The position numbers and the translations under genes were made by a program. From a virus (taxonomy: Duplodnaviria; Heunggongvirae; Uroviricota; Caudoviricetes), in IMG/VR virus record IMGVR_UViG_2585427760_000002, positions 1 through 10,983 of that record: 10,983 nt of DNA. One strand, given 5' to 3'. Of the stretch, positions 1 to 10,983 are shown piece by piece (within the stretch, counting starts at the first letter, position 1; the number at the start of each line of letters is the position of its first letter). Under the pieces are notes generated by a model. The model searched no databases and was not told the origin of the DNA. It saw only the letters and a list, made by a program, of their open reading frames with translations.

Positions 1-474
<474 letters not shown>

Positions 475-478
475 TTAG
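475..478. repeat. Candidate 4-bp IS5 target-site duplication copy (TTAG)
   Basis: TTAG lies directly at the IS5 terminus and IS5 duplicates a 4-bp YTAR target. The second copy would be at the other IS5 end, outside the window, so the duplication itself is unverified. Confidence 0.5.
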
Positions 479-1790
479 TAATTTTGATAAGGCAAGAGCT
501 AAAGAAATATTACTAAGTGAGGTTGTTGTATTTGAAAATATTGACTCGGTAATAGAGGATTTTTCAATATTTATACAAGCAATTAATTCAAAGATAGATG
601 CTAATAATACACTCTTTAGAAATATAAAAACTGAGCAGAAAAATTTAAAAGAACATATATGGGCATATATTACCAAAGATGAGTTAAAAACGGATATAGA
701 AACTTACCTTAAAGCACGAAGCAAACTTGAGAAGAAAAGAGATGGTCTAAATGTAGGAGTAGCAAAAGAAAGCGAACAACTGATCGAGTTGAAGAAGGAG
801 ATGGAAGGAATTGAATCTAGCCAGACGAGTATTCTTCCAACTGTTCATGCAATTAATAATATTTTGAAGTGCTATGGGTTCACAAATTTCCATCTTAAAC
901 CATCTGAAGATAAAGCGCATTATGTAATAGTAAGAGACAGCGGAGATAACGCTAGATTAACATTGAGCGAAGGAGAGAAGACGTTCATCACTTTTCTTTA
1001 CTATTATAGTCTTGTGAGAGGTAGCAATCAATCTTCTGGTGTTCTGGAAGATCGGGTCGTTGTTTTTGATGATCCAATATCAAGTTTAGATAGCGATATA
1101 TTGTTTATTGTCAGTTCACTAATTAAAAATTTAATGGATGATGTCCGTGAAAACAAAGGCAGCATAAAACAAATAATTATACTTACGCATAACATCTATT
1201 TTCACAAAGAGTTAACATTCAATCCAAAAAGATCAGGTAATAATGCAATGAATGAAGAAACCTTTTGGATTGTTAGAAAGAAAGATAAGAATTCTTATGT
1301 TGAAAAGTGCACTACCAACCCAATAAAAACATCATACGATCTCTTATGGAGCGAATTACGTCGTAGTGATAAAAATAATGGAACAATTCAAAACACTATG
1401 CGCAGAATTTTAGAGAACTACTTTAAAATTTTAGGTGGTGTTGATGTCAGAGAGTTAGAGTGTAATTTTGAAGGTTATGATAAATTAATTTTTAACTCAT
1501 TGGTGTCATGGATTAATGATGGCTCGCATTTTTCTGGAGATGATGTGTACATGAATTTAGATGATGTTTCTGTTGAGAAGAATCTAATTGTGTTTCAGAA
1601 AATATTTGAGTGTAGCCAACATGCAGCGCATTATAAAATGATGATGGGCGATTCGTATAAGCCCCTGGAAATAACGGTTCAACCTGTCGATGTTGTTGAA
1701 TTGGAGTCTGGTGCTAATGATGATGATATGAAAGTTGATGGTGCTGATGAGAAATCATCTTTGTTGTTAAGTGATGATGCGCCATTTTAA
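475..1790 (+). pseudogene. 3' portion (about 438 codons) of an IS5-interrupted ABC/SMC-like (AAA_13-type) ATPase gene; AT-rich cargo; possible PrrC/RloC-like C-terminal effector region
   Basis: The frame is open from the IS5 junction to the TAA at 1788-1790. The protein has a charged coiled-coil-like stretch (KTDIETYLKARSKLEKKRDGLNVGVAKESEQLIELKKEMEGIESS), an ABC signature-like LSEGEKTFITFLYYYSL, a Walker B/D-loop RVVVFDDPISSLDSD and an H-loop-like IIILTHN. No Walker A (GxxxxGK[ST]) is present and no ATG/GTG/TTG start follows the junction in frame, so the N-terminus must be on the far side of IS5. About 200 C-terminal residues are unassigned. The track ORF 405-1790 begins inside IS5 and is a read-through artefact. 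The segment is much more AT-rich than the phage genes. Confidence 0.6.
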
Positions 1791-1809
1791 TAAGTTAAAT
1801 TCTAAATAC

Positions 1810-1835
1810 GCCTGTAATAGATTTTAATTACAGGC
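1810..1835. terminator. Candidate bidirectional intrinsic terminator between the convergent cargo gene and Q
   Basis: Perfect inverted repeat GCCTGTAAT (1810-1818) / ATTACAGGC (1827-1835) around an 8-nt loop, in a 53-bp AT-rich gap between two convergent stop codons (1790 and 1844), with T/A-rich flanks on both strands. The stem is only moderately GC-rich. Confidence 0.4.
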
Positions 1836-1843
1836 CTATTTAA

Positions 1844-2872
1844 CTAATTTAAATCGTAATTTTTGAAATTTATAATATTTACACCTGCCCAATCGTTCAA
1901 TTCTTCCAACCTTTTTTGCAATGGTAAAAGTTCATTTCGAACGAAAACATTCGCTGCCTTTTCCACATCCCCAAATCCCCCAACATTGCTAGGCATTATC
2001 CCCATCATCTGCGGCGGCACCCGGTGCGCTGCCATCATGTCGTCCCGGCTCACGTTCTTGATGTTCAAAAACTCATCCTTTGCCGCCACTTCTGATAGTG
2101 GGATGATCTGGATGCCGTCCTTTTTACCGTTGGGGGAGTACATAAACAGGTTGCGGAAGTTGCCCGGCCCTTTGGCGCTTTTCATGGCTTGGCGGATGTT
2201 GTTCACGTCCTCTTGGTTCTGCGCCGCGTCGGTCATGTACATGATGAACCCTGCATGGCTGCCGTTGATGTAGTACTTGCGACGAAACAGAGTGGCGGAT
2301 TCGTTCAGCAGGGCAGAAGGAATAGCTGACAGATATTCTGGCAGGCCGTAAATCTCTTGGTTCAGGTCAGGTTCCATCAGATGAAAAATGCTACCTTTAG
2401 TGAACTCATACGGCTGCGTGGTCAACCCGTACTGTACAAACCAGTAAGTATCTAGATCCACTCCGCGGCGGGTGTATTTCGCCAGTGACGGCTCAAGCGA
2501 CAGAATGCCGCCGAGCCGGTTGGTGCGCTTCTCCAGATAGGCGTTACCAAATACCAGATAGTCCTGTACAAATCGGCTGAATGCCTGCTGGCTCAGAAGC
2601 GGGTGGGGAATAAAGGTGCTGGTCAGAATATTACGCTTCACCGCAATTGGGGAGCTGTGGTGCACCGCCGCGCGGTAGGTGCGCGCCAGCCCGTCAAAAC
2701 TCACCGGTGGCTCATACCACCTGTCCATCTGTACGCATTCCACATAGTCCAGTAATTCGCGGCGGTCCAGAACTGGGATCGGATCACCGAAGCTGAATGC
2801 TTCTGCCGCTGCGCCGCGGCTGGTATTTGTGTTGTGATTAGCCGCGGTGCGGCGGTTCTTACGTTTGCCCAT
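1844..2872 (-). CDS. Q: Phage portal protein (P2 gpQ-like), 342 aa
   Basis: The translation (MGKRKNRRTAANHNTNTSRGAAAEAFSFGDPIPVLDRRELLDYVECVQMDRWYEPP...) is recognisable as the P2-family portal. Length is close to P2 gpQ, and its ATG overlaps the P stop (ATGA at 2870-2874), as in P2. Confidence 0.9.
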   Translation of the reverse strand: MGKRKNRRTAANHNTNTSRGAAAEAFSFGDPIPVLDRRELLDYVECVQMDRWYEPPVSFDGLARTYRAAVHHSSPIAVKRNILTSTFIPHPLLSQQAFSRFVQDYLVFGNAYLEKRTNRLGGILSLEPSLAKYTRRGVDLDTYWFVQYGLTTQPYEFTKGSIFHLMEPDLNQEIYGLPEYLSAIPSALLNESATLFRRKYYINGSHAGFIMYMTDAAQNQEDVNNIRQAMKSAKGPGNFRNLFMYSPNGKKDGIQIIPLSEVAAKDEFLNIKNVSRDDMMAAHRVPPQMMGIMPSNVGGFGDVEKAANVFVRNELLPLQKRLEELNDWAGVNIINFKNYDLN

Positions 2873-4635
2873 CAGAAAATCTCCACAATGTTGTTGGTAT
2901 TGGCGGCCTCGCCCTGCAGCGGTTCGTTAAACAGCGCGTGCATCGTTGCCCAGGCCAAATCTGCATGGCTGGCTTCTTCACTTCGGCTGGCTTCATATGT
3001 TGGGCGGTTGCCGCTGGCGGTGGTGGCCCGGCGGATTGCCATAAAGGATTGCGCGATGTCGGTGTGCCCTGCGTCGAACTCCAGGCGGCGGTGGCTGATA
3101 ATGTCGTATGCCTTGAGAACCAGGGCGTTTTTGACGTTCGGGTTATAAACGAACTCGCGGACGGCGGGGAAAAAGGCTTTAACGTTCTCATAGACGCCGT
3201 GGCCTACGCCGGTTGAGTCGATGCCGATATAGGTCACGTTATATTGCTGCGTGAGGGCTTTGATAGCGTCAGCCTGGGCGCGAAAGTCCATTCCGCGCCA
3301 CTGGTGACGCTCCAGAATACGGAACTTGCCGCCCGATACTGATGGCGGGGCAATGACGACGCAACCGGCGCTGTCACCGTTCTGCGTACCTTTCGCCGGG
3401 TCATAACCGATCCAGACTTCACGCCAGCCAAACGGACGCAGCGCCAGCGCCTGAAAATCAGTCCAGACTTCCCAACTGTCCACCATGCAGGCCTGCAGCT
3501 CGCTGAGCGGGAACACTGACGCCAGATCGTCAATAAATTCACACATCAGCAGGTTCTGGTATTCGTCAGGGCTGTATTCCATGCGCAGCTGGTCGAGGTC
3601 GAACAGGTTACAGCCACCGCGCACGGCATCCTCAACGGTGACGATCTGGCGGTATTGTCCATCTGGGCAAAGCACGCCGCGCGCCAGATTGGCGTGGGTC
3701 AGGTCAATATCTACCTTGTCAGCTTTTGCGCGGCCCCGATTGAACAGGGCGCCCGACCAGAACGGATAGGCGCTGTGGGTCAGGCTGGACGGCGTGGAAA
3801 AATAGGTTTGCCGCCATTTTTTGTGAATCGCCATCCCAGATGCCACTTTGCGTAGCTCCTGGAATTTCGGTATCCAGAAATATTCATCAAGGTAAAGGTT
3901 GCCATGGTAGCTCTGCGCGGTGCGGGCGTTTGTGCCGAGGAAATACAGCGTGGCGCCATTGCTGAGCGTCATCGGGTCGCCTTTCAGCTCCACATCAACC
4001 TCTTTGGCAAAGTCGATGATGTATTGCTTAAAGACGTGTGCCTGCGCCTTGCTGGCGGAGAGGAAGATTTGATTGCGCCCTGTGGTGATAGCGTCGATCA
4101 GTGCCTCGCGGGCGAAGAAATACGTTGCGCCTATCTGACGGGATTTAAGCAGGTTGCGGATGCGGTGCTTAACGCCTGCCTGCCACCAATGGCGCTGATA
4201 TTCGAACATACCGCCACGGAATATTTCTTCCAGCTTTTCGATCTGCTCATCGGTGAAAATGTTCTTTTCAGGCTGGCGGCGCGGGCCTTTGTTGCGGTTG
4301 GCAACTTTCGGATTCAAATCTGCCTCGTTCCCGCCATCGTTGAATTTCCCGATCCGGGCGTGACGTTCTGACTGACGTGCCAGCAGGTCAATTTCCTTAA
4401 AGTCTTTCCCTTCTTTCTGCTCCTTCATGATGAGCTGGCAATAGCGGGCTGCAGTGGTGAGCTGCATCTGATCGAGTGGGCCATACTCGCCCCACTTATC
4501 ACGCTTTTTCCAGCTGTGAACGGTTGCAACTTTTTCGCCCAGCATTTCAGCAATGCGGGCTACGCGGTATCCCTGAAAATACAGCAGCATTGCCTGCCTG
4601 CGGGGATCGAGGTCTGAGGGGGTCATGGTTTCCAT
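2872..4635 (-). CDS. P: Terminase large (ATPase) subunit (P2 gpP-like), 587 aa
   Basis: The translation (METMTPSDLDPRRQAMLLYFQGYRVARIAEMLGEKVATVHSWKKRDKWGEYGP...) is recognisable as the P2-family large terminase. It is divergent from O and in a Q-P operon on the minus strand. An alternative start at the fourth codon (Met) is possible. Confidence 0.9.
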   Translation of the reverse strand: METMTPSDLDPRRQAMLLYFQGYRVARIAEMLGEKVATVHSWKKRDKWGEYGPLDQMQLTTAARYCQLIMKEQKEGKDFKEIDLLARQSERHARIGKFNDGGNEADLNPKVANRNKGPRRQPEKNIFTDEQIEKLEEIFRGGMFEYQRHWWQAGVKHRIRNLLKSRQIGATYFFAREALIDAITTGRNQIFLSASKAQAHVFKQYIIDFAKEVDVELKGDPMTLSNGATLYFLGTNARTAQSYHGNLYLDEYFWIPKFQELRKVASGMAIHKKWRQTYFSTPSSLTHSAYPFWSGALFNRGRAKADKVDIDLTHANLARGVLCPDGQYRQIVTVEDAVRGGCNLFDLDQLRMEYSPDEYQNLLMCEFIDDLASVFPLSELQACMVDSWEVWTDFQALALRPFGWREVWIGYDPAKGTQNGDSAGCVVIAPPSVSGGKFRILERHQWRGMDFRAQADAIKALTQQYNVTYIGIDSTGVGHGVYENVKAFFPAVREFVYNPNVKNALVLKAYDIISHRRLEFDAGHTDIAQSFMAIRRATTASGNRPTYEASRSEEASHADLAWATMHALFNEPLQGEAANTNNIVEIF

Positions 4636-4681
4636 GGCTCAAACATACGGCCTTGATTGCAGCCTTTCCCTGACTGCGTTT

Positions 4682-4699
4682 TGTGTGGTTTATCGCACA
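4682..4699. promoter_or_regulatory. TGT-N12-ACA dyad in the P/O divergent intergenic region: candidate Ogr/Delta-type late-activator site
   Basis: TGTgtggtttatcgcACA at 4682-4699. P2-family late promoters are known to carry a TGT-N12-ACA element centred near -55. The centre here (about 4690) is roughly 85 bp upstream of the O start at 4776, compatible with a rightward late promoter with a short leader. A GGAG Shine-Dalgarno sits at 4764-4767. No second clean site was found for the leftward P promoter. Confidence 0.45.
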
Positions 4700-4775
4700 A
4701 GGTGCGCGCGTTGTTTCACCCCCTCCATCACAGCAAACATAAGGCTCCAGTAAGTTTTCTAACGGAGCACAGCTC

Positions 4776-5609
4776 ATGACAGTGAAAGCAAAGCGTTTCC
4801 GTATTGGGGTGGAAGGTGTCACCACTGACGGACGCGAAATCCAGCGTGACTGGCTGATTCAGATGGCTGCCAGCTATAACCCGTCGGTCTATACCGCGCT
4901 GATCAACCTAGAACACATTAAGTCCTACATGCCGGACAGCACTTTTAACCGTTACGGCAAGGTAGCGGCGCTGGTTGCAGAGGAAATCAGTGATGGCCCG
5001 CTGGCGGGCAAGATGGCGCTTTATGCCGATGTGGAGCCAACGGATTCACTGGTGGAGCTGGTAAAAAAAGGCCAGAAGCTGTTCACCTCCATGGAGGTCA
5101 GCCCGAAATTTGCTGATACCGGTAAAGCCTATCTGGTAGGGCTGGCGGCCACTGACGATCCAGCAAGTCTGGGTACCGAAATGCTGGCTTTCAGTGCCAG
5201 CGCTGCGCACAACCCGCTGGCGAACCGTAAGCAGAACCCTGAAAACCTGTTTACCGCCGCTGCAGAAACGGTGATCGAACTGGAAGAAACCCAAGACGAA
5301 AAACCGAGCCTTTTTTTCCGCGTGGCTGCGATGTTCAGCAAAAAAGAACAAAGCGACGATGCGCGATTCTCTGATGTGCATAAAGCCGTGGAACTGCTGG
5401 CAACTGAGCAGCAGAACCTGGGCGACAGCACGCAAAAATCCTTATCTGAGCAGGCCGCCCGTCTGTCTGAGCTGGAAACCTTGCTGCAGGCGCAGGTCGA
5501 TGCCTTTTCCGAACTGCAGCAGAAGCTGAGCCAGGAAGATAGCCGCAAAGATTATCGCCAGCGCACGCCGGGCGGCTCTGCGCCTGCTGGCTCTCTGACC
5601 AATTGCTGA
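4776..5609 (+). CDS. O: Capsid scaffolding protein (P2 gpO-like), 277 aa
   Basis: The translation (MTVKAKRFRIGVEGVTTDGREIQRDWLIQMAASYNPSVYTALINLEHIKSYMPDS...) is recognisable as the P2-family scaffold. It has an SD plus ATG start and the conserved O-N-M-L gene order. Confidence 0.88.
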   Translation: MTVKAKRFRIGVEGVTTDGREIQRDWLIQMAASYNPSVYTALINLEHIKSYMPDSTFNRYGKVAALVAEEISDGPLAGKMALYADVEPTDSLVELVKKGQKLFTSMEVSPKFADTGKAYLVGLAATDDPASLGTEMLAFSASAAHNPLANRKQNPENLFTAAAETVIELEETQDEKPSLFFRVAAMFSKKEQSDDARFSDVHKAVELLATEQQNLGDSTQKSLSEQAARLSELETLLQAQVDAFSELQQKLSQEDSRKDYRQRTPGGSAPAGSLTNC

Positions 5610-5625
5610 TGGAGCATAAAACCCG

Positions 5626-6702
5626 ATGAAACAGAAAACTAAATTTGCATTCAATGCCTACCTGCAGCAGCTGGCACGCCTGAACGGTGTGGAGGTTGAG
5701 GAGCTTTCCAGCAAGTTCACCGTTGAGCCGTCCGTACAGCAGACGTTGGAGGATGAGATCCAGCAGTCTGCTGCATTCCTGACGTTGATTAACGTCTCGC
5801 CGGTTGATGAGCAGTCCGGACAACTGCTGGGGTTGGGCGTAGGTAGCACCGTTGCCGGAACCACCGACACCACCAAACAGGACCGTGAGCCTACCGATCC
5901 GATGGTGATGGAGGACGTGGAGTATAAATGCGAGCAGACCAACTATGACACGGTGCTGACCTACGCGAAGCTGGACCTGTGGGCGAAATTCCAGGACTTC
6001 CAGGTGCGCGTGCGTAACGCCATCATCAAGCGTCAGGCGCTGGACCGCATCATGATTGGCTTTAACGGCGTGAGCCGCGCCAAAACCTCTGACCGTTCTG
6101 CTAACCCTCTGCTGCAGGATGTGAACAAAGGCTGGCTGCAGAAAATCCGCGAAGATGCGCCGGATCACGTTATGGGCAGTACCACCAAAGACGGCGTAAC
6201 CACTAAAGGCGCGGTGAAAGTGGGTAAAGGCGCGTCGGGGCTGGATGACAAAGGCTACGAAAATCTGGACGCCGTGGTGATGGATGCCGTCAACGAGCTG
6301 ATCGATGTGGTGTACCAGGACGATGACGAATTGGTGGTGATCTGTGGTCGTGAGCTGCTGTCCGACAAGTATTTCCCTCTCGTCAACAAAGACCAGGAGA
6401 ACAGTGAAAAGCTGGCTGCCGATCTCATTATCAGCCAGAAACGCATGGGTGGCCTGCAGGCGGTCCGCGCGCCGTTCTTCCCGGCAAATGCCCTGCTGAT
6501 TACACGTCTGGATAACCTGTCCATTTACTGGCAGGCAGATACCCGCCGCCGTTCTGTCATTGATAACCCGAAACGCGATCGCATTGAAAACTTTGAATCG
6601 GTCAATGAGGCGTTTGTGGTGGAGGACTACCGCTGCGCGGCCCTGGTTGAAAACATCGAGTACGGTGATTTCAGTACTCCAGCACCAGATTCCGGGGAGT
6701 AA
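5626..6702 (+). CDS. N: Major capsid protein (P2 gpN-like), 358 aa
   Basis: The translation (MKQKTKFAFNAYLQQLARLNGVEVEELSSKFTVEPSVQQTLEDEIQQSAAFLTLINV...) is recognisable as the P2-family major capsid protein. Length is close to P2 gpN (about 357 aa). Confidence 0.92.
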   Translation: MKQKTKFAFNAYLQQLARLNGVEVEELSSKFTVEPSVQQTLEDEIQQSAAFLTLINVSPVDEQSGQLLGLGVGSTVAGTTDTTKQDREPTDPMVMEDVEYKCEQTNYDTVLTYAKLDLWAKFQDFQVRVRNAIIKRQALDRIMIGFNGVSRAKTSDRSANPLLQDVNKGWLQKIREDAPDHVMGSTTKDGVTTKGAVKVGKGASGLDDKGYENLDAVVMDAVNELIDVVYQDDDELVVICGRELLSDKYFPLVNKDQENSEKLAADLIISQKRMGGLQAVRAPFFPANALLITRLDNLSIYWQADTRRRSVIDNPKRDRIENFESVNEAFVVEDYRCAALVENIEYGDFSTPAPDSGE

Positions 6703-6705
6703 TGC

Positions 6706-7356
6706 ATGAGCCTGAGTCCCGCAAGGCAGCATCGCCTGCGCGTTCAGGCTGAACAGGCCGCTCGGCAGGGCGGCAGTGTTCGCCACGCGTCAGGTTATGA
6801 CCTGATGCTGCTGCAGCTGGCGGAGGACCGCCGCCGCCTTAAAAGCATTCAGTCCACGGTAACAAAGGCGCAAATCAAAGTTGAGCTGCTGCCTAAGTAT
6901 GCCGCCTGGGCGGAGGGGGTGCTGGCTGCCGGCGGTACGCAGCAGGACGATGTGCTGATGTTCGTGATGCTCTGGCGTATTGATGCCGGTGATTATGCCG
7001 GAGCGCTGGAAATCGGGCGTCATGCACTGCGTCAGGGCTGGGTGATGCCAATTGGCAATCGGAACGTGCAGACGGTGCTGGCGGAAGAAATTGCAGACGC
7101 GGCGCAAAGCGCCCTGATTGCCGCAACGGGCTTTGACGTTGAGCCGCTTCTGCAGACGCTGGACCTTACCGCCGATCACGATATGCCGGATCAGTCACGG
7201 GCGCGACTGCATAAAGCAATCGGCCTTGTGCTGGCTGAATCCAGCCCCGCATCAGCGCTTAACCACCTCAACCATGCGCTGCAGCTCGATAACCACTGTG
7301 GCGTGAAGAAAGATAAACAGCAACTGGAGCGCCGTTTGCGCGTCGCCGGTAGCTGA
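6706..7356 (+). CDS. M: Terminase small/endonuclease subunit (P2 gpM-like), 216 aa
   Basis: The translation (MSLSPARQHRLRVQAEQAARQGGSVRHASGYDLMLLQLAEDRRRLKSIQ...) resembles P2 gpM. It starts 4 nt after the N stop. It is shorter than P2 gpM (about 247 aa), which has a longer basic C-terminal tail. Confidence 0.85.
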   Translation: MSLSPARQHRLRVQAEQAARQGGSVRHASGYDLMLLQLAEDRRRLKSIQSTVTKAQIKVELLPKYAAWAEGVLAAGGTQQDDVLMFVMLWRIDAGDYAGALEIGRHALRQGWVMPIGNRNVQTVLAEEIADAAQSALIAATGFDVEPLLQTLDLTADHDMPDQSRARLHKAIGLVLAESSPASALNHLNHALQLDNHCGVKKDKQQLERRLRVAGS

Positions 7357-7449
7357 CCGAACGTGCCCCGCGCACGGGCGGCACGGGGTGGCGAAAGGCA
7401 ACGCCACATCAAAACCCCGTCCACCGCCCTCTAATCTGGAGAAAGCCGC

Positions 7450-7914
7450 ATGAAGTTTGTTGCGCCCGAACAGGCACCGGAACAGGCCGAAGTCATCAAA
7501 AATACGCCGTTCTGGCCTGATGTTGATTTGTCGGAATTTCGCAGCGTGATGCGAACGGACGGCACGGTGACGGCACCACGTTTAAAGCAGTTGATCCTTT
7601 CCGCTATGTCAGAGGTTAACGCAGAGCTTTACACCTTCCGCCAGCGCCAGCAGATGCTGGGGTTTATGACGCTGGCAGATGTGCCTGCGGAGCAGCTGGA
7701 CGGTAAAAGCGAGCGCATCCACCACTATCACAATGCTGTTTTTTGCTGGGCGCGTGCGCAGGTCAATGAGCGTTATCAGGACTATGACGCCACGGCGTCC
7801 GGCGTGAAGCGGGGAGAGGAACTGGCGGAGGCCAGCGGCGACCTGTGGCGGGATGCCCGCTGGGCTATCAGCCGGGTACAGGATGCGCCGCACTGCACGG
7901 TGGAGCTGATCTGA
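7450..7914 (+). CDS. L: Head completion/stabilisation protein (P2 gpL-like), 154 aa
   Basis: The translation (MKFVAPEQAPEQAEVIKNTPFWPDVDLSEFRSVMRTDGTVTAPRLKQLILSAM...) is recognisable as P2-family gpL. A GGAG sits about 8 nt upstream of the ATG. Confidence 0.87.
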   Translation: MKFVAPEQAPEQAEVIKNTPFWPDVDLSEFRSVMRTDGTVTAPRLKQLILSAMSEVNAELYTFRQRQQMLGFMTLADVPAEQLDGKSERIHHYHNAVFCWARAQVNERYQDYDATASGVKRGEELAEASGDLWRDARWAISRVQDAPHCTVELI

Positions 7915-8117
7915 TGAAAGTGCGTGCGTACCAGAATGACACGGTGGACGCGCTTTGCTGGCGTCATTACGGACGCACGCAGGGCGTCACGGAACAGGTA
8001 CTGCAGGCAAATCCGGGGCTGGCTGAATATGGCCCATTTTTACCACACGGCCTGCAGGTGGAGCTGCCGGATATTGCCACCACGACCACGGTGCAGACCG
8101 TCCAGCTATGGGACTGA
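7914..8117 (+). CDS. X: Tail protein X (P2 gpX-like), 67 aa
   Basis: The ATG at 7914 overlaps the L stop (TGATG). The translation MKVRAYQNDTVDALCWRHYGRTQGVTEQVLQANPGLAEYGPFLPHGLQVELPDI... matches P2 gpX in character and in length (67 aa). The track's longer ORF from 7845 uses an upstream alternative start inside L and is not preferred. Confidence 0.85.
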   Translation: MKVRAYQNDTVDALCWRHYGRTQGVTEQVLQANPGLAEYGPFLPHGLQVELPDIATTTTVQTVQLWD

Positions 8118-8120
8118 ACT

Positions 8121-8336
8121 ATGACGCTTGAACGAATCAGCGCCTTTGTTACGTACTGCATCGCCTTATTCATGGCGAAGCTTGGGAACTTTGATCTGCA
8201 GGCGGCAGCGACCATCACCGGAATGGTGCTGGGTTTGTGCATGTTTCTGGTCAGCTGGTACTACCGGCACAAGACCTATCAGCTGCTTGCCAGCGGAAAA
8301 ATCAGCCGGGGTGAATGTGAGTCTGCGGGCCGTTAA
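8121..8336 (+). CDS. Holin, small two-TMD type (pinholin-like), 71 aa
   Basis: It occupies the holin position immediately after X and before the endolysin. It has two hydrophobic segments (ISAFVTYCIALFMAKL and ITGMVLGLCMFLVSWYY) and a charged C-terminus. It is shorter than P2 gpY (about 93 aa). Confidence 0.7.
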   Translation: MTLERISAFVTYCIALFMAKLGNFDLQAAATITGMVLGLCMFLVSWYYRHKTYQLLASGKISRGECESAGR

Positions 8337-8826
8337 AAACTGCGTTATCGGTGTGGTGCTGGCGATTGCCGCCACGCTGCCGGGTTTTCAGCAACTCCAC
8401 ACATCGGTGGAAGGATTAAAGCTGATTGCGGATTACGAGGGATGCCGCCTGCAGCCTTATCAGTGTGATGCGGGTGTGTGGACTGACGGCATCGGCAACA
8501 CGTCAGGCGTGAAGCCGGGCCGGACCATTACAGAACGGCAGGTGGCGGGGAACTTCATCACCAACGTGCTGAGGGTTGAAACCGCGCTGGCGCGCTGTGT
8601 CCTGGTGGATGTTCCGCAGTTTGTCTATGACGCGCTGGTGTCTCTGGCCTTTAACGTTGGGGCCGGCAATGCCTGCAGTTCCACCATGGTGAAGTTTATT
8701 AATCAGAAGCGCTGGCGGGATGCGTGCTATCAGCTGCCGCGCTGGGTGTATGTCAACGGTGTATTTAATCAGGGGCTGGATAACCGCCGCGCGCGGGAGC
8801 TGTCCTGGTGCTTAAAGGGAGCGTAA
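8311..8826 (+). CDS. SAR (signal-anchor-release) endolysin, T4-lysozyme-like fold, about 170 aa; start at GTG 8311 or GTG 8317
   Basis: The track ORF 8128-8826 is over-extended upstream. Immediately after the in-frame GTG codons the protein has an N-terminal Gly/Ala-rich weakly hydrophobic segment (VKNCVIGVVLAIAATLPGF) followed by a catalytic-looking region (EGLKLIADYEGCRLQPYQCDAGVWTDGIGNT). It overlaps the holin 3' end, as is typical of lysis cassettes. Confidence 0.8.
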   Translation: MNVSLRAVKNCVIGVVLAIAATLPGFQQLHTSVEGLKLIADYEGCRLQPYQCDAGVWTDGIGNTSGVKPGRTITERQVAGNFITNVLRVETALARCVLVDVPQFVYDALVSLAFNVGAGNACSSTMVKFINQKRWRDACYQLPRWVYVNGVFNQGLDNRRARELSWCLKGA

Positions 8827-8856
8827 CGGAATGAAAAATAAAGTGGCGGTGGCCTG

Positions 8857-9282
8857 ATGCGCATACTGGCGGCGGTGATAGCGCTGGTTCTTGCCTTGCT
8901 TGGCTGGCAATCGTGGCAGTTGAACAAGGCCCGGCAGACGATTGAGCTGCAGGGACGTGATCTTGAAGCCAGCAAGGAAAAACAGGCCCGCGCCAGCAGT
9001 CAGCTGATCGCGCTGTCTGTTCTGACCGAAACCAACAACCGGGAGCAGGCGCGGCTTTATGCGGCGGCGGAAGAATCCACCGCGCTACTGCGCCAGCGGC
9101 AACGGCGTATTGAGGAGCTTAAACGTGAAAACGATGATTTGCGGCGCTGGTCTGATACTCCTTTGCCTCCTGACGTTATCAGGTTGCGGGACCGCCCCGC
9201 GCTCGCCGGAGGTGCAGCTTACCGTGAATGGCTGTCCGAAAATAACACAGTGCCGCCTGCAAAAGTCGTCAGCCAGGACTAA
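8857..9282 (+). CDS. lysB: i-spanin (Rz-like; P2 LysB-like), 141 aa
   Basis: N-terminal TM helix (ILAAVIALVLALLGW) followed by a charged coiled-coil periplasmic domain. Length is the same as P2 LysB as I recall it. No lysA-like gene lies between the endolysin and lysB; the gap is only 30 bp. Confidence 0.85.
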   Translation: MRILAAVIALVLALLGWQSWQLNKARQTIELQGRDLEASKEKQARASSQLIALSVLTETNNREQARLYAAAEESTALLRQRQRRIEELKRENDDLRRWSDTPLPPDVIRLRDRPALAGGAAYREWLSENNTVPPAKVVSQD

Positions 9283-9415
9283 CGGCGATCTGCTTACGGC
9301 GGCTGATGAAGCCGAGGCTGCATGGGCCATCTGCGCCGATAAGGTGGATGTGATTATTGCCTGCCAGGAGCGAAACAGTGAACAAGCCTCAATCCTTACG
9401 CCACGCGCTCAATAA
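9125..9415 (+). CDS. lysC: o-spanin lipoprotein (Rz1-like; P2 LysC-like), 96 aa from GTG 9125 (or 93 aa from ATG 9134)
   Basis: It starts in an alternative frame inside lysB and extends past its stop (overlapped spanin architecture). It has a signal peptide with a lipobox (ICGAGLILLCLLTLSGC). A GAGGAG Shine-Dalgarno at 9111-9116 sits 8 nt before GTG 9125. Confidence 0.8.
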   Translation: MKTMICGAGLILLCLLTLSGCGTAPRSPEVQLTVNGCPKITQCRLQKSSARTNGDLLTAADEAEAAWAICADKVDVIIACQERNSEQASILTPRAQ

Positions 9416-9812
9416 GGCGGTGCAGTACGTCCGGGAGAACCCGGACAAGCTGCATATGTTCGTGGACAAAGGCGCAGTAGTGGCGACCGGCGCGCCGTCT
9501 ATTTCATGGGAATACCGGTACACCCTGAACGTGGTGGTAGTCGATTTTAGTGGTGACCAGAATTTACTGATGGCGCCGATCCTCCAGTGGCTGAGTGTTA
9601 ACCAGCCTGACGCCATCAACAACCCGGAGCTGAGGGAAAAACTTTTTAGTTTTGAAGTGGATATCCTGCGCAATGATATTTGCGATATCAGCATAGACCT
9701 GCAGCTGACGGAGCGTGTTGTGGTCAGCACTGATGGCGGTGTGTCGAGCGTGGAAGCCGTGCCGGAGCCGGAAAACCCTGATGATGCTATGTGGACGGTG
9801 AAACGTGGATGA
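9378..9812 (+). CDS. R: Tail completion protein R (P2 gpR-like), about 144 aa from GTG 9378
   Basis: The translation (...SLRHALNKAVQYVRENPDKLHMFVDKGAVVATGAPSISWEYRYTLNVVVVDFSGDQNLLMAPILQWL...) is recognisable as P2-family gpR. AGGAG at 9365-9369 sits 8 nt before GTG 9378; the track's start at 9357 is a TTG inside lysC and is less likely. Confidence 0.85.
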   Translation: MNKPQSLRHALNKAVQYVRENPDKLHMFVDKGAVVATGAPSISWEYRYTLNVVVVDFSGDQNLLMAPILQWLSVNQPDAINNPELREKLFSFEVDILRNDICDISIDLQLTERVVVSTDGGVSSVEAVPEPENPDDAMWTVKRG

Positions 9813-10251
9813 GCTGCAGCAGGTTGATGCGTGGCTGACGGCGCTGCTGGCGAGCCTTGCCCCGGCAGAACGGAAGCGAATGCTGCGCGAGCTGGCGCAG
9901 CAGCTGCGCCGGACGCAACAACAAAACATCAGGCTGCAGCGCAACCCGGACGGTAGCGGATACGAGCCGCGCCGCGTCACGGGACGCACGAAGCAGGGGC
10001 GCATCAAGCGGCAGATGTTTTCTAAGCTGCGTACCGCAAGATACCTGAAAGCCACCGCCAGCGCAGACTCTGCCAGTGTGCAGTTTGAGGGGAGGGTGCA
10101 GCGCATTGCTCGTGTACATCATTACGGCCTGCGTGATCGAGTCAGTCGTAAGGGGCCGGAGATCCGATACACTAAACGTCAATTACTCGGATTCAGTGAT
10201 AATTCTCGCTTATTGATTCGCGATGTGCTGTTACGTTTTATAAATTATTGA
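9805..10251 (+). CDS. S: Tail completion protein S (P2 gpS-like), 148 aa, GTG start
   Basis: The translation (DELQQVDAWLTALLASLAPAERKRMLRELAQQLRRTQQQNIRLQRNPDGSGYEPRRV...) is recognisable as P2-family gpS. The GTG start overlaps the R stop. Confidence 0.87.
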   Translation: MDELQQVDAWLTALLASLAPAERKRMLRELAQQLRRTQQQNIRLQRNPDGSGYEPRRVTGRTKQGRIKRQMFSKLRTARYLKATASADSASVQFEGRVQRIARVHHYGLRDRVSRKGPEIRYTKRQLLGFSDNSRLLIRDVLLRFINY

Positions 10252-10270
10252 ATGTGATAATCCAATTTAG

Positions 10271-10720
10271 TCATTTATTATTTTTAAGTTTTTTGGATAA
10301 GAAGAATAATCCAGCGATACACATTATTAACAATGCTACGGAGATTGAATGATGTATTGTCCATTTGTCTGGATCTATAACTGAAAGCATAAGGAGTATT
10401 ACGGAAGCTATGCCCAGCATTATAGGCTCGACTGCTTCGTCAGGACCTTTTGTTATCAGCATAAATGCAAGTTGGAACCCACATGATACAGCCAGTGCTT
10501 TGGCAACATAACTTAGGGTTTTTATTTGTCGTATATGAGCAAAGAACGGTTGTGATGATATATCAATTGGCCAGAATGTATCTACTAATTCAACTGTGCC
10601 TTTGAATAAAAGGAACCCTGTTAAACCGACAAATATAAGTCGTTGGCAAAAAAACTGAATTCTATCTGCAGATTTTTCAGTTTCGGATTTATTTTCATCT
10701 TCAATGTCTTCGATGTCATC
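10271..10720 (-). pseudogene. 3' portion (about 149 codons) of an AT-rich cargo gene encoding a multi-TM membrane domain, apparently interrupted by IS1
   Basis: My own minus-strand translation shows the frame stays open from the IS1 junction (10720) to the stop at 10273-10271, about 149 codons with no stop in roughly 30% GC DNA. It reads DDIEDIEDENKSETEKSADR (acidic linker), then about four hydrophobic helices (IQFFCQRLIFVGLTGFLLF, LSYVAKALAVSCGFQLAFMLI, VEPIMLGIASVILLMLSVI, ISVALLIMCIAGLFFL), ending KKLKNNK. The first canonical start is the ATG at 10462 (the 63-aa ORF in the track); no ATG/GTG/TTG lies upstream of it in frame, so the frame most likely continues from beyond IS1. Confidence 0.5.
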
Positions 10721-10983
10721 GGTAATGACTCCAACTTATTGATAGTGTTTTATGTTCAGATAATGCCCGATGACTTTGTCATGCAGCTCCACCGATTTGA
10801 GAACGACAGCGACTTCCGTCCCAGCCGTGCCAGGTGCTGCCTCAGATTCAGGTTATGCCGCTCAATTCGCTGCGTATATCGCTTGCTGATTACGTGCAGC
10901 TTTCCCTTCAGGCGGGATTCATACAGCGGCCAGCCATCCGTCATCCATATCACCACGTCAAAGGGTGACAGCAGGCTCATAAG
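10721..10983 (-). mobile_element. IS1: IS1 insertion sequence, partial: 263 bp from one terminal inverted repeat; the rest lies right of the window
   Basis: GGTAATGACTCCAACTTATTGATAGTGTTTTATGTTCAGATAATGCCCGATGAC... at 10721 onward is the IS1 terminal inverted repeat in reverse orientation, followed by the insB 3' coding region. IS1 is 768 bp. The flanking 9 bp (10712-10720, GATGTCATC) would be the target duplication, but the other copy is outside the window. Confidence 0.92.
10736..10983 (-). CDS. insB: IS1 transposase InsB, C-terminal part (partial); the C-terminal approximately 19 residues differ from the canonical InsB I recall
   Basis: The minus-strand translation ...[61 protein letters not shown]... 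matches IS1 InsB. After LSFS the window reads [13 protein letters not shown] with a stop at 10756, whereas the InsB I recall ends [20 protein letters not shown] with a stop at 10736. This is consistent with a 1-nt shorter A-run (TTT at 10796-10798 on the plus strand). Confidence 0.85.

Follow-up and report, generated by a model that had tools for sequence, protein, structure and literature searches.

The window, by which we mean the whole stretch of DNA analysed here, is the complete 10,983-bp draft contig JOSR01000028.1 of Escherichia coli 1-250-04_S3_C2 (assembly GCA_000713815.1). The contig is broken at an IS5 on the left and at an IS1 on the right, so that both window ends are assembly breaks at multicopy insertion sequences, and because the window is the entire contig, no longer contig is available for extension. 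Positions 1-474 (- strand) are the transposase-start end of IS5, 100% identical to the IS5 of E. coli K-12, with the contig break lying within the repeat. A DUF772 transposase fragment is called as a gene there, and the terminal repeat, ...GTTCGCACCTTCC, has its last base at 474. It is followed at 475-478 by TTAG, the IS5 target site, whose first base is also the first base of homology to uninterrupted relatives, and which is present as a single TTAG in one of them (contig L004, from an E. coli assembly). Duplication of the target is presumed, because only one junction is visible. The 3' part of a cargo gene split by the IS5 then runs from 475 to 1790 (+ strand; residues ~341-777; AAA_13 / PADLOC PDC-S06), and the corresponding fused open reading frame, at 405-1790 on the + strand, is KEO36895.1 of E. 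coli 1-250-04_S3_C2. The IS5 (window positions 1-478) sits inside a defence-hotspot gene of a P2-like prophage.

Convergent with the cargo gene is the portal gene Q (1844-2872, - strand, 342 aa), which was aligned with P2 Q, 186 W and E. coli relatives. Beyond it lies gene P (2872-4635, - strand; Pfam Terminase_5 / 6N / 6C) for the terminase large (ATPase) subunit, the enzyme that would cut cos. After P come O, N, M, L, X, the holin, lysozyme and lysis genes, R and S, on the + strand; M (6706-7356, + strand; PF05944 Phage_term_smal) encodes the terminase small (endonuclease) subunit. Every structural or terminase gene of the window has an intact open reading frame. Directly downstream of tail gene S, the IS1 is inserted in an AT-rich minus-strand gene (10271-10722), which we take to hold the position of orf30 in P2. 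The IS1 end itself (10723-10983), which begins GGTAATGACTCC... and carries a DDE_Tnp_IS1 gene call, forms the right contig break.

The + strand cargo gene ends at 1790 and the stop codon of Q on the - strand occupies 1844-1846, leaving a gap of 53 bp (1791-1843). As the first-pass annotation of this DNA had described it, the gap is AT-rich (24.5% G+C) and mostly taken up by a hairpin, whose inverted repeat (1803-1842) fills 40 of the 53 bp. The 16-nt arms, at 1803-1818 and 1827-1842, are 94% complementary and enclose an 8-nt loop, and comparison of folding with shuffled sequence gave z = -4.5 and -4.4 for the two strands. A hairpin of different sequence was found at the same place in L001, an E. 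coli prophage with a 75%-identical cassette (z = -4.4). The cargo gene is transcribed towards Q, and the strong hairpin thus lies between two convergent genes, as a positional analogue of tQ in P2 and tW in 186, the annotated terminators just past Q and W. Because this position is shared with tQ and tW, and because L001 has its hairpin at the same place, the hairpin is probably a two-way transcription stop belonging to the cassette. Its role as a terminator is one that we infer, since a simple T-run terminator scan of positions 1500-2100 gave no match and rejects the hairpin, the stem being followed by only 4 T in 8 nt. The gap is a spacer between convergent genes, and on our reading nothing is missing from it.

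The first-pass annotation had started from P2, in which cos lies close to the 3' end of Q, and had reported no P2-type cos in the 53-bp gap. The premise is right, P2 having cosR at 33575-33593, cosL at 1-19, old at 31620-33380 and the Q stop at 187, and the observation extends beyond the gap to the rest of the window. A P2-type cos was taken to be a G+C-rich 19-nt cohesive-end sequence of the form GGCG(A/T)GGCGGGG-N7. The P2 19-mer, GGCGAGGCGGGGAAAGCAC, had no match in the whole window at up to 3 mismatches, and neither had a 26-nt pattern made of the cos of the window's own lineage, GGCGTGGCGGGGATACGAG, plus CGCGCGC. With that 26-nt pattern, which includes CGCGCGC, unmatched, the conserved flanks of cos (TGCAT(G/T)AAAACC...AAGCGGGC upstream and (C/T)GCGCGC downstream) were likewise counted as absent from the gap and the window. 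When the 12-nt core GGCGNGGCGGGG was searched with up to 1 mismatch, a single match was found in the window, at 6229 in capsid gene N, against a chance expectation of 0.31.

Many contigs encode a Q protein identical to that of the window, and two of them were compared. L003, from a human-gut metagenome, matches window positions 475-10843 at 99.99%, and L004 matches 475-10716 at 100% (window 475-10716 corresponding to L004 10242-1). Both are without the IS5, and in both the cargo gene is intact and encodes 777 aa. In L004, the cos-like 19-mer GGCGTGGCGGGGATACGAG is located at 11405-11387, 145 nt upstream of the cargo ATG (11260) and 2,532 nt from the Q stop (8873). On both sides of the 19-mer the sequence can be aligned with the cos of P2 and that of 186, which were defined by experiment, and reads TGCAT(G/T)AAAACC...AAGCGGGC(A/G), then GGCG(A/T)GGCGGGGA..., then (C/T)GCGCGC, so that the site combines the 19-mer core and homologous flanks with the strand and side (A - cos - Q) expected of a P2-type cos. 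The same 19-mer stands left of the cargo in the E. coli prophages L001, which has a 75%-identical cargo gene, and L002, which has a different cargo, and a scan for the cos-cargo junction matched one metagenome contig, L094. Complete E. coli genomes held no close copy of the prophage, the best matches being 85% identical. On these alignments GGCGTGGCGGGGATACGAG is the putative cohesive end of the lineage. Displacement of cos to the left of the cargo gene, one of three options raised in the first-pass annotation, is strongly supported, contigs 99.99-100% identical to the window having cos upstream of an intact cargo gene, and three quarters of the species-level relatives in which a cos is recognisable also having cargo between it and Q.

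Between A and cos, L004 carries three small genes (11523-13012, - strand) of 62, 64 and 268 aa with no significant Pfam match. The A-cos genes of this lineage form a second accessory slot, which corresponds to tin/old in P2 and tum/orf97 in 186.

A second option was divergence, and under it cos could lie inside the window, in the gap or another intergenic region, in a form altered beyond recognition. Some divergence is real, since the last 7 nt of the lineage 19-mer (ATACGAG) are unlike those of P2 (AAAGCAC), and in this minor sense the word 'diverged' applies. However, the lineage has a well-conserved cos, known from identical relatives and located elsewhere, and L003 and L004 share the gap sequence yet carry a canonical cos 2.5 kb away. 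The gap, with its low G+C content, is nearly filled by the hairpin, and the pattern searches were negative apart from the core match in gene N, which is at chance level. An unrecognised cos within the window, whether in the gap or outside it, was rejected as extremely improbable.

Our reading, to which we give a probability of roughly 85%, is that the cos - cargo - hairpin - Q layout is normal here and that this genome's own cos lies left of the IS5, on another contig. The order in the lineage would be A ... small genes - cos - cargo - hairpin - Q - P, with the cargo occupying the cos-Q interval. A simple IS5 insertion would have added 1,195 bp and a 4-bp TTAG duplication. The start of cos would then be 1,163 nt away from the insertion point, on its left, and 3,731 nt away from the Q stop, which puts it ~1,887 nt outside the left end of the window. 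On a sister contig, the other end of the IS5 would border the 5' 1,022 nt of the cargo gene, in one piece with GGCGTGGCGGGGATACGAGCGCGCGCTGGCACTTTGG. The left junction predicted in this way had no exact match among viral contigs. With the first 341 aa of the cargo protein as query, a protein search returned only relatives of at most 44% identity, and the predicted 376-aa product, in which the N-terminal cargo fragment is read into IS5, had no exact match in the protein collection. For the 268-aa gene left of cos, the 99%-identical match in a protein search belongs to a different, retron-carrying prophage (L095).

The remaining option is that cos was lost, an IS5-mediated adjacent deletion or recombination with another IS5 copy having removed the 5' part of the cargo gene together with cos and left the prophage unable to package its DNA. 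As the contig stops within IS5, its left junction is out of view, and this reading keeps a small share of the probability for this strain. The missing 376-aa product also speaks for it, as weak evidence, because an exact gene call is required for such a match. Breaks at multicopy insertion sequences are, however, expected from short-read assembly, and E. coli genomes carry a median of 2 copies of IS5, with a maximum of 43. At the junction that can be seen, the IS5 end passes cleanly into TTAG, with 100% identity to relatives from the first base, and the open reading frames of the structural and terminase genes show no damage. The IS1 at 10723, a second insertion sequence in the prophage, could hint at decay, but it is shared by L003, which has an intact cargo gene and cos, and it is therefore no marker of strain-specific decay; since the IS1 junction is common to that metagenome relative, the IS1 is older than the IS5 insertion. 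We consider loss of cos unlikely. The view of the locus as an anomaly with a possible loss of packaging finds no support, a cos beyond the cargo being ordinary in the lineage.

A Q-protein scan of one genome per bacterial species yielded 80 loci, 74 of them with a full-length Q open reading frame, and 68 of these 74 had the cos core no more than 4.5 kb from the Q stop and on the strand expected. In these 68 loci, cos and the Q stop were 120 to 3,518 nt apart. Only 17 showed the 'empty' state of P2 and 186, with at most 350 nt, whereas the other 51 exceeded 350 nt, with a median of 1,824 nt. Since 51 of the 68 loci are filled, the 2.5-kb spacing in the lineage of the window is typical. The first-pass annotation had named a cos normally located at a different place as grounds for giving up its concern, and this is the situation found in those 51 species-level relatives. 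A cos close to Q characterises P2 and 186 themselves, which show a minority arrangement, and does not characterise the family.

The DNA between cos and Q averaged 39% G+C in the filled loci versus 58% in the empty ones, and in the window the cargo has 33% G+C versus 53% in the body of Q. A different gene occupies the cos-Q slot in each of L001, L002, Fels-2, Cartapus and, putatively, L095. The interval is thus a hotspot in the sense that foreign, compositionally deviant genes, differing among relatives, lie between cos and the 3' end of Q.

Alignment of 66 distinct loci from many genera on the 19-mer revealed high conservation from about -125 to +7, then background. The conserved stretch past the 19-mer is 7 nt long, CGCGCGC, and the drop after it is immediate. 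Because the conserved flank of cos is all on the A side, terminase recognition beyond the cut site would, judging from conservation, also lie on the A side and leave the Q side free. Any DNA between cos and Q would then be tolerated without harm to terminase recognition. The left flank of cos (L004 11530-11380, - strand; the same in the 66 loci) holds five (T)GCATG-type repeats, to which the small terminase subunit may bind, together with a hairpin resembling a terminator, CCCGCCAG-N3-CTGGCGGGCTTTT.

The same alignment bears on whether the lineage might package its DNA by a headful or other non-cos mode. Nothing was found in favour of such a mode, and it is at odds with P, M and Q, which are terminase and portal genes of the P2 family, and with the retention of a P2/186-homologous cos region in all 66 loci; that the region is kept across so many genera indicates selection. 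A non-cos packaging mode was rejected on this conservation, and we regard its chances as negligible.

Comparison with known systems places the window among arrangements already described. P2 has the same order, A - accessory genes - cos - Q - P, a homologous cos core with its flanks (TGCAT.AAAACC...GCGGGC. GGCG.GGCGGGGA...GCGCGC) and homologous terminase and portal genes, its Q being 63% identical. It differs in the 3' 7 nt of the 19-mer, and in that its cargo (tin, old) lies on the A side of cos, whereas that of the window lineage lies on the Q side. The cos-Q interval of P2 is 167 nt long and holds only the terminator tQ (160-181); in the window lineage it is the cargo and Q that are separated, by 53 bp. 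Phage 186 is like P2, with cos at 1-19, tW at 164-187 and the W stop at 196.

Foreign cargo in this interval was described early. Dodd & Egan 1996 (Virology 219:115) reportedly found the retrons Ec67 and Ec86 in place of the DNA between cos and tW in 186-related prophages, and their paper is credited in PMC5694545 with first describing the hotspot. In PMC5694545, foreign genes are said to accumulate in the cosL-Q interval as a hotspot, with reference to Dodd & Egan 1996 and Nakayama 1999. The Ec67 and Ec86 prophages share with the window a foreign cargo between cos and the portal gene in a 186/P2-like E. coli prophage. They differ in that the cargo here is a single AAA_13 / PDC-S06 ATPase gene with no retron, and in that the replaced segment here seems to include the probable terminator and the last 45-110 nt of Q. 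In L095, a metagenome contig of a related prophage, a retron-type pair (4096-6141), consisting of an STM3845-family protein and an RVT_1 reverse transcriptase, lies downstream of a homologue of the 268-aa gene of L004 and is followed by a convergent gene of 308 aa that has no annotation and is truncated where the contig stops. The pair echoes the classic Ec67/Ec86 case and putatively occupies the same slot.

Working phages have this layout too. The Pseudomonas phage phiCTX shows the same succession of cosL (1-21), the lysogenic-conversion gene ctx (362-1222, + strand), terminators and a convergent Q (1417-2469, - strand), and its cos core is GGCGTGGCGGGG. It differs from the window lineage in its host, its toxin cargo, its annotated 21-nt cohesive end and a gap of 194 bp from the cargo stop to the Q stop. 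In Fels-2 of Salmonella and in Cartapus (prophage 4 of E. coli LF82), the 19-mer with its CGCGCGC precedes a cargo gene on the + strand, beyond which lies Q or the portal gene. In Cartapus, cos (1-59, 'putative' in the record), a DUF4145 gene (162-860) and the portal gene (869-1903) follow one another, with the two stops 8 bp apart. These two phages differ from the window in their cargo genes (STM2723.1 in Fels-2, DUF4145 in Cartapus) and in having no insertion sequence. A passage in PMC9928086 reports encapsidated Cartapus DNA in virion preparations, at 3.3x10^5 genomes/mL. As Cartapus has the same sequence, this gives indirect support to GGCGTGGCGGGGATACGAG as a site that the P/M terminase may cut to leave 19-nt 5' cohesive ends.

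At a larger scale, Rousset et al. 2022 (PMC9122126) list 1,650 different arrangements of the genes that lie between gpA and gpQ in E. coli, in a defence hotspot that adjoins cos, and a 2026 survey in NAR (PMC13586616) confirms the gpA-gpQ hotspot. The window agrees with these surveys in having variable, AT-rich, defence-type genes between A and Q, near cos, and its cargo matches a PADLOC candidate family. It differs in that an IS5 sits in the hotspot gene here. In the parts of the two surveys drawn on (PMC9122126, PMC13586616), A-Q is taken as one interval, the A-cos and cos-Q sub-slots being undivided. The cos - cargo - hairpin - Q arrangement is already known, and the window is one instance of it with no new feature.

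The intact 777-aa cargo of L004 gave a full-length profile match, to PF13166 (AAA_13) with an E-value of 7.7e-165 and to PADLOC PDC-S06 with 8.7e-265 over residues 1-735, and also has a weaker similarity to PrrC. On these matches the cargo is a candidate defence ATPase (AAA_13 / PDC-S06). The copy in the window is cut after about residue 340 by the IS5 and is presumably inactive. L002, another E. coli prophage, has a different cargo gene between cos and Q, and a copy of ISKpn26, an IS5-family element, lies at the start of that gene. Targets of the form YTAR are frequent in AT-rich DNA, which may make the cos-Q slot attractive to IS5-family elements. According to the 2026 NAR survey (PMC13586616), transposable elements are nearly absent from P2-like elements, which makes the IS5 and IS1 of this prophage a small oddity.

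The variable AT-rich DNA does not stop at the end of the spacer but takes in the last 90-110 nt of Q (1844 to ~1950). In the window, the last 90 nt of Q have 27% G+C versus 53% in the Q body. The 3' end of Q (1844-1950) was compared with that of L010-L089, and nucleotide homology of the window Q to 87 other loci was found to end at 1837-2001, with the mode at 1889, inside Q. Across the 68 species-level loci, Q-tail G+C was 40% where the slot holds cargo and 55% where it is empty (Mann-Whitney p = 4e-7), whereas Q-body G+C was alike (0.55 vs 0.54, cargo vs empty); the protein motif of the tail is nevertheless kept. From the tail composition and the break in homology inside Q, the cassettes therefore seem to include their own Q 3' end. 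We give about even odds to a fuller version of this proposal, in which the cassettes may reach 45-110 nt into Q, bringing their own AT-rich last 15-35 codons, so that swaps rewrite the C-terminal tail of the portal protein. Cargo exchange may proceed by recombination between two limits, a sharp one on the left, 7 nt beyond the cohesive end, and another on the right, within Q. Co-variation of tail and cargo was also compared, giving a tail identity of 0.70 vs 0.59, in a test without power, since the DNA next to the cargo is related in no more than 4 of the 1,225 locus pairs, the informative ones. No description of a cargo-borne Q tail was found in those portions of the literature on P2-like phages and their hotspots that were available. 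If the proposal is true, each swap of a defence gene also changes the C-terminal tail of the portal protein.

For the biology of these phages the result carries little weight; it carries some for annotation practice. The P2 and 186 reference genomes mislead in that they lead one to expect cos beside the 3' end of Q, when in most of the relatives sampled a defence or conversion cassette parts cos and Q by 0.5-3.5 kb. Where the integrity of a prophage is judged by a cos next to Q, such prophages would be wrongly called packaging-defective. Useful by-products of the analysis are the clearly defined extent of conservation around cos in the Fels-2/186-like lineage (-125 to +7) and the limits of the cargo slot on either side.
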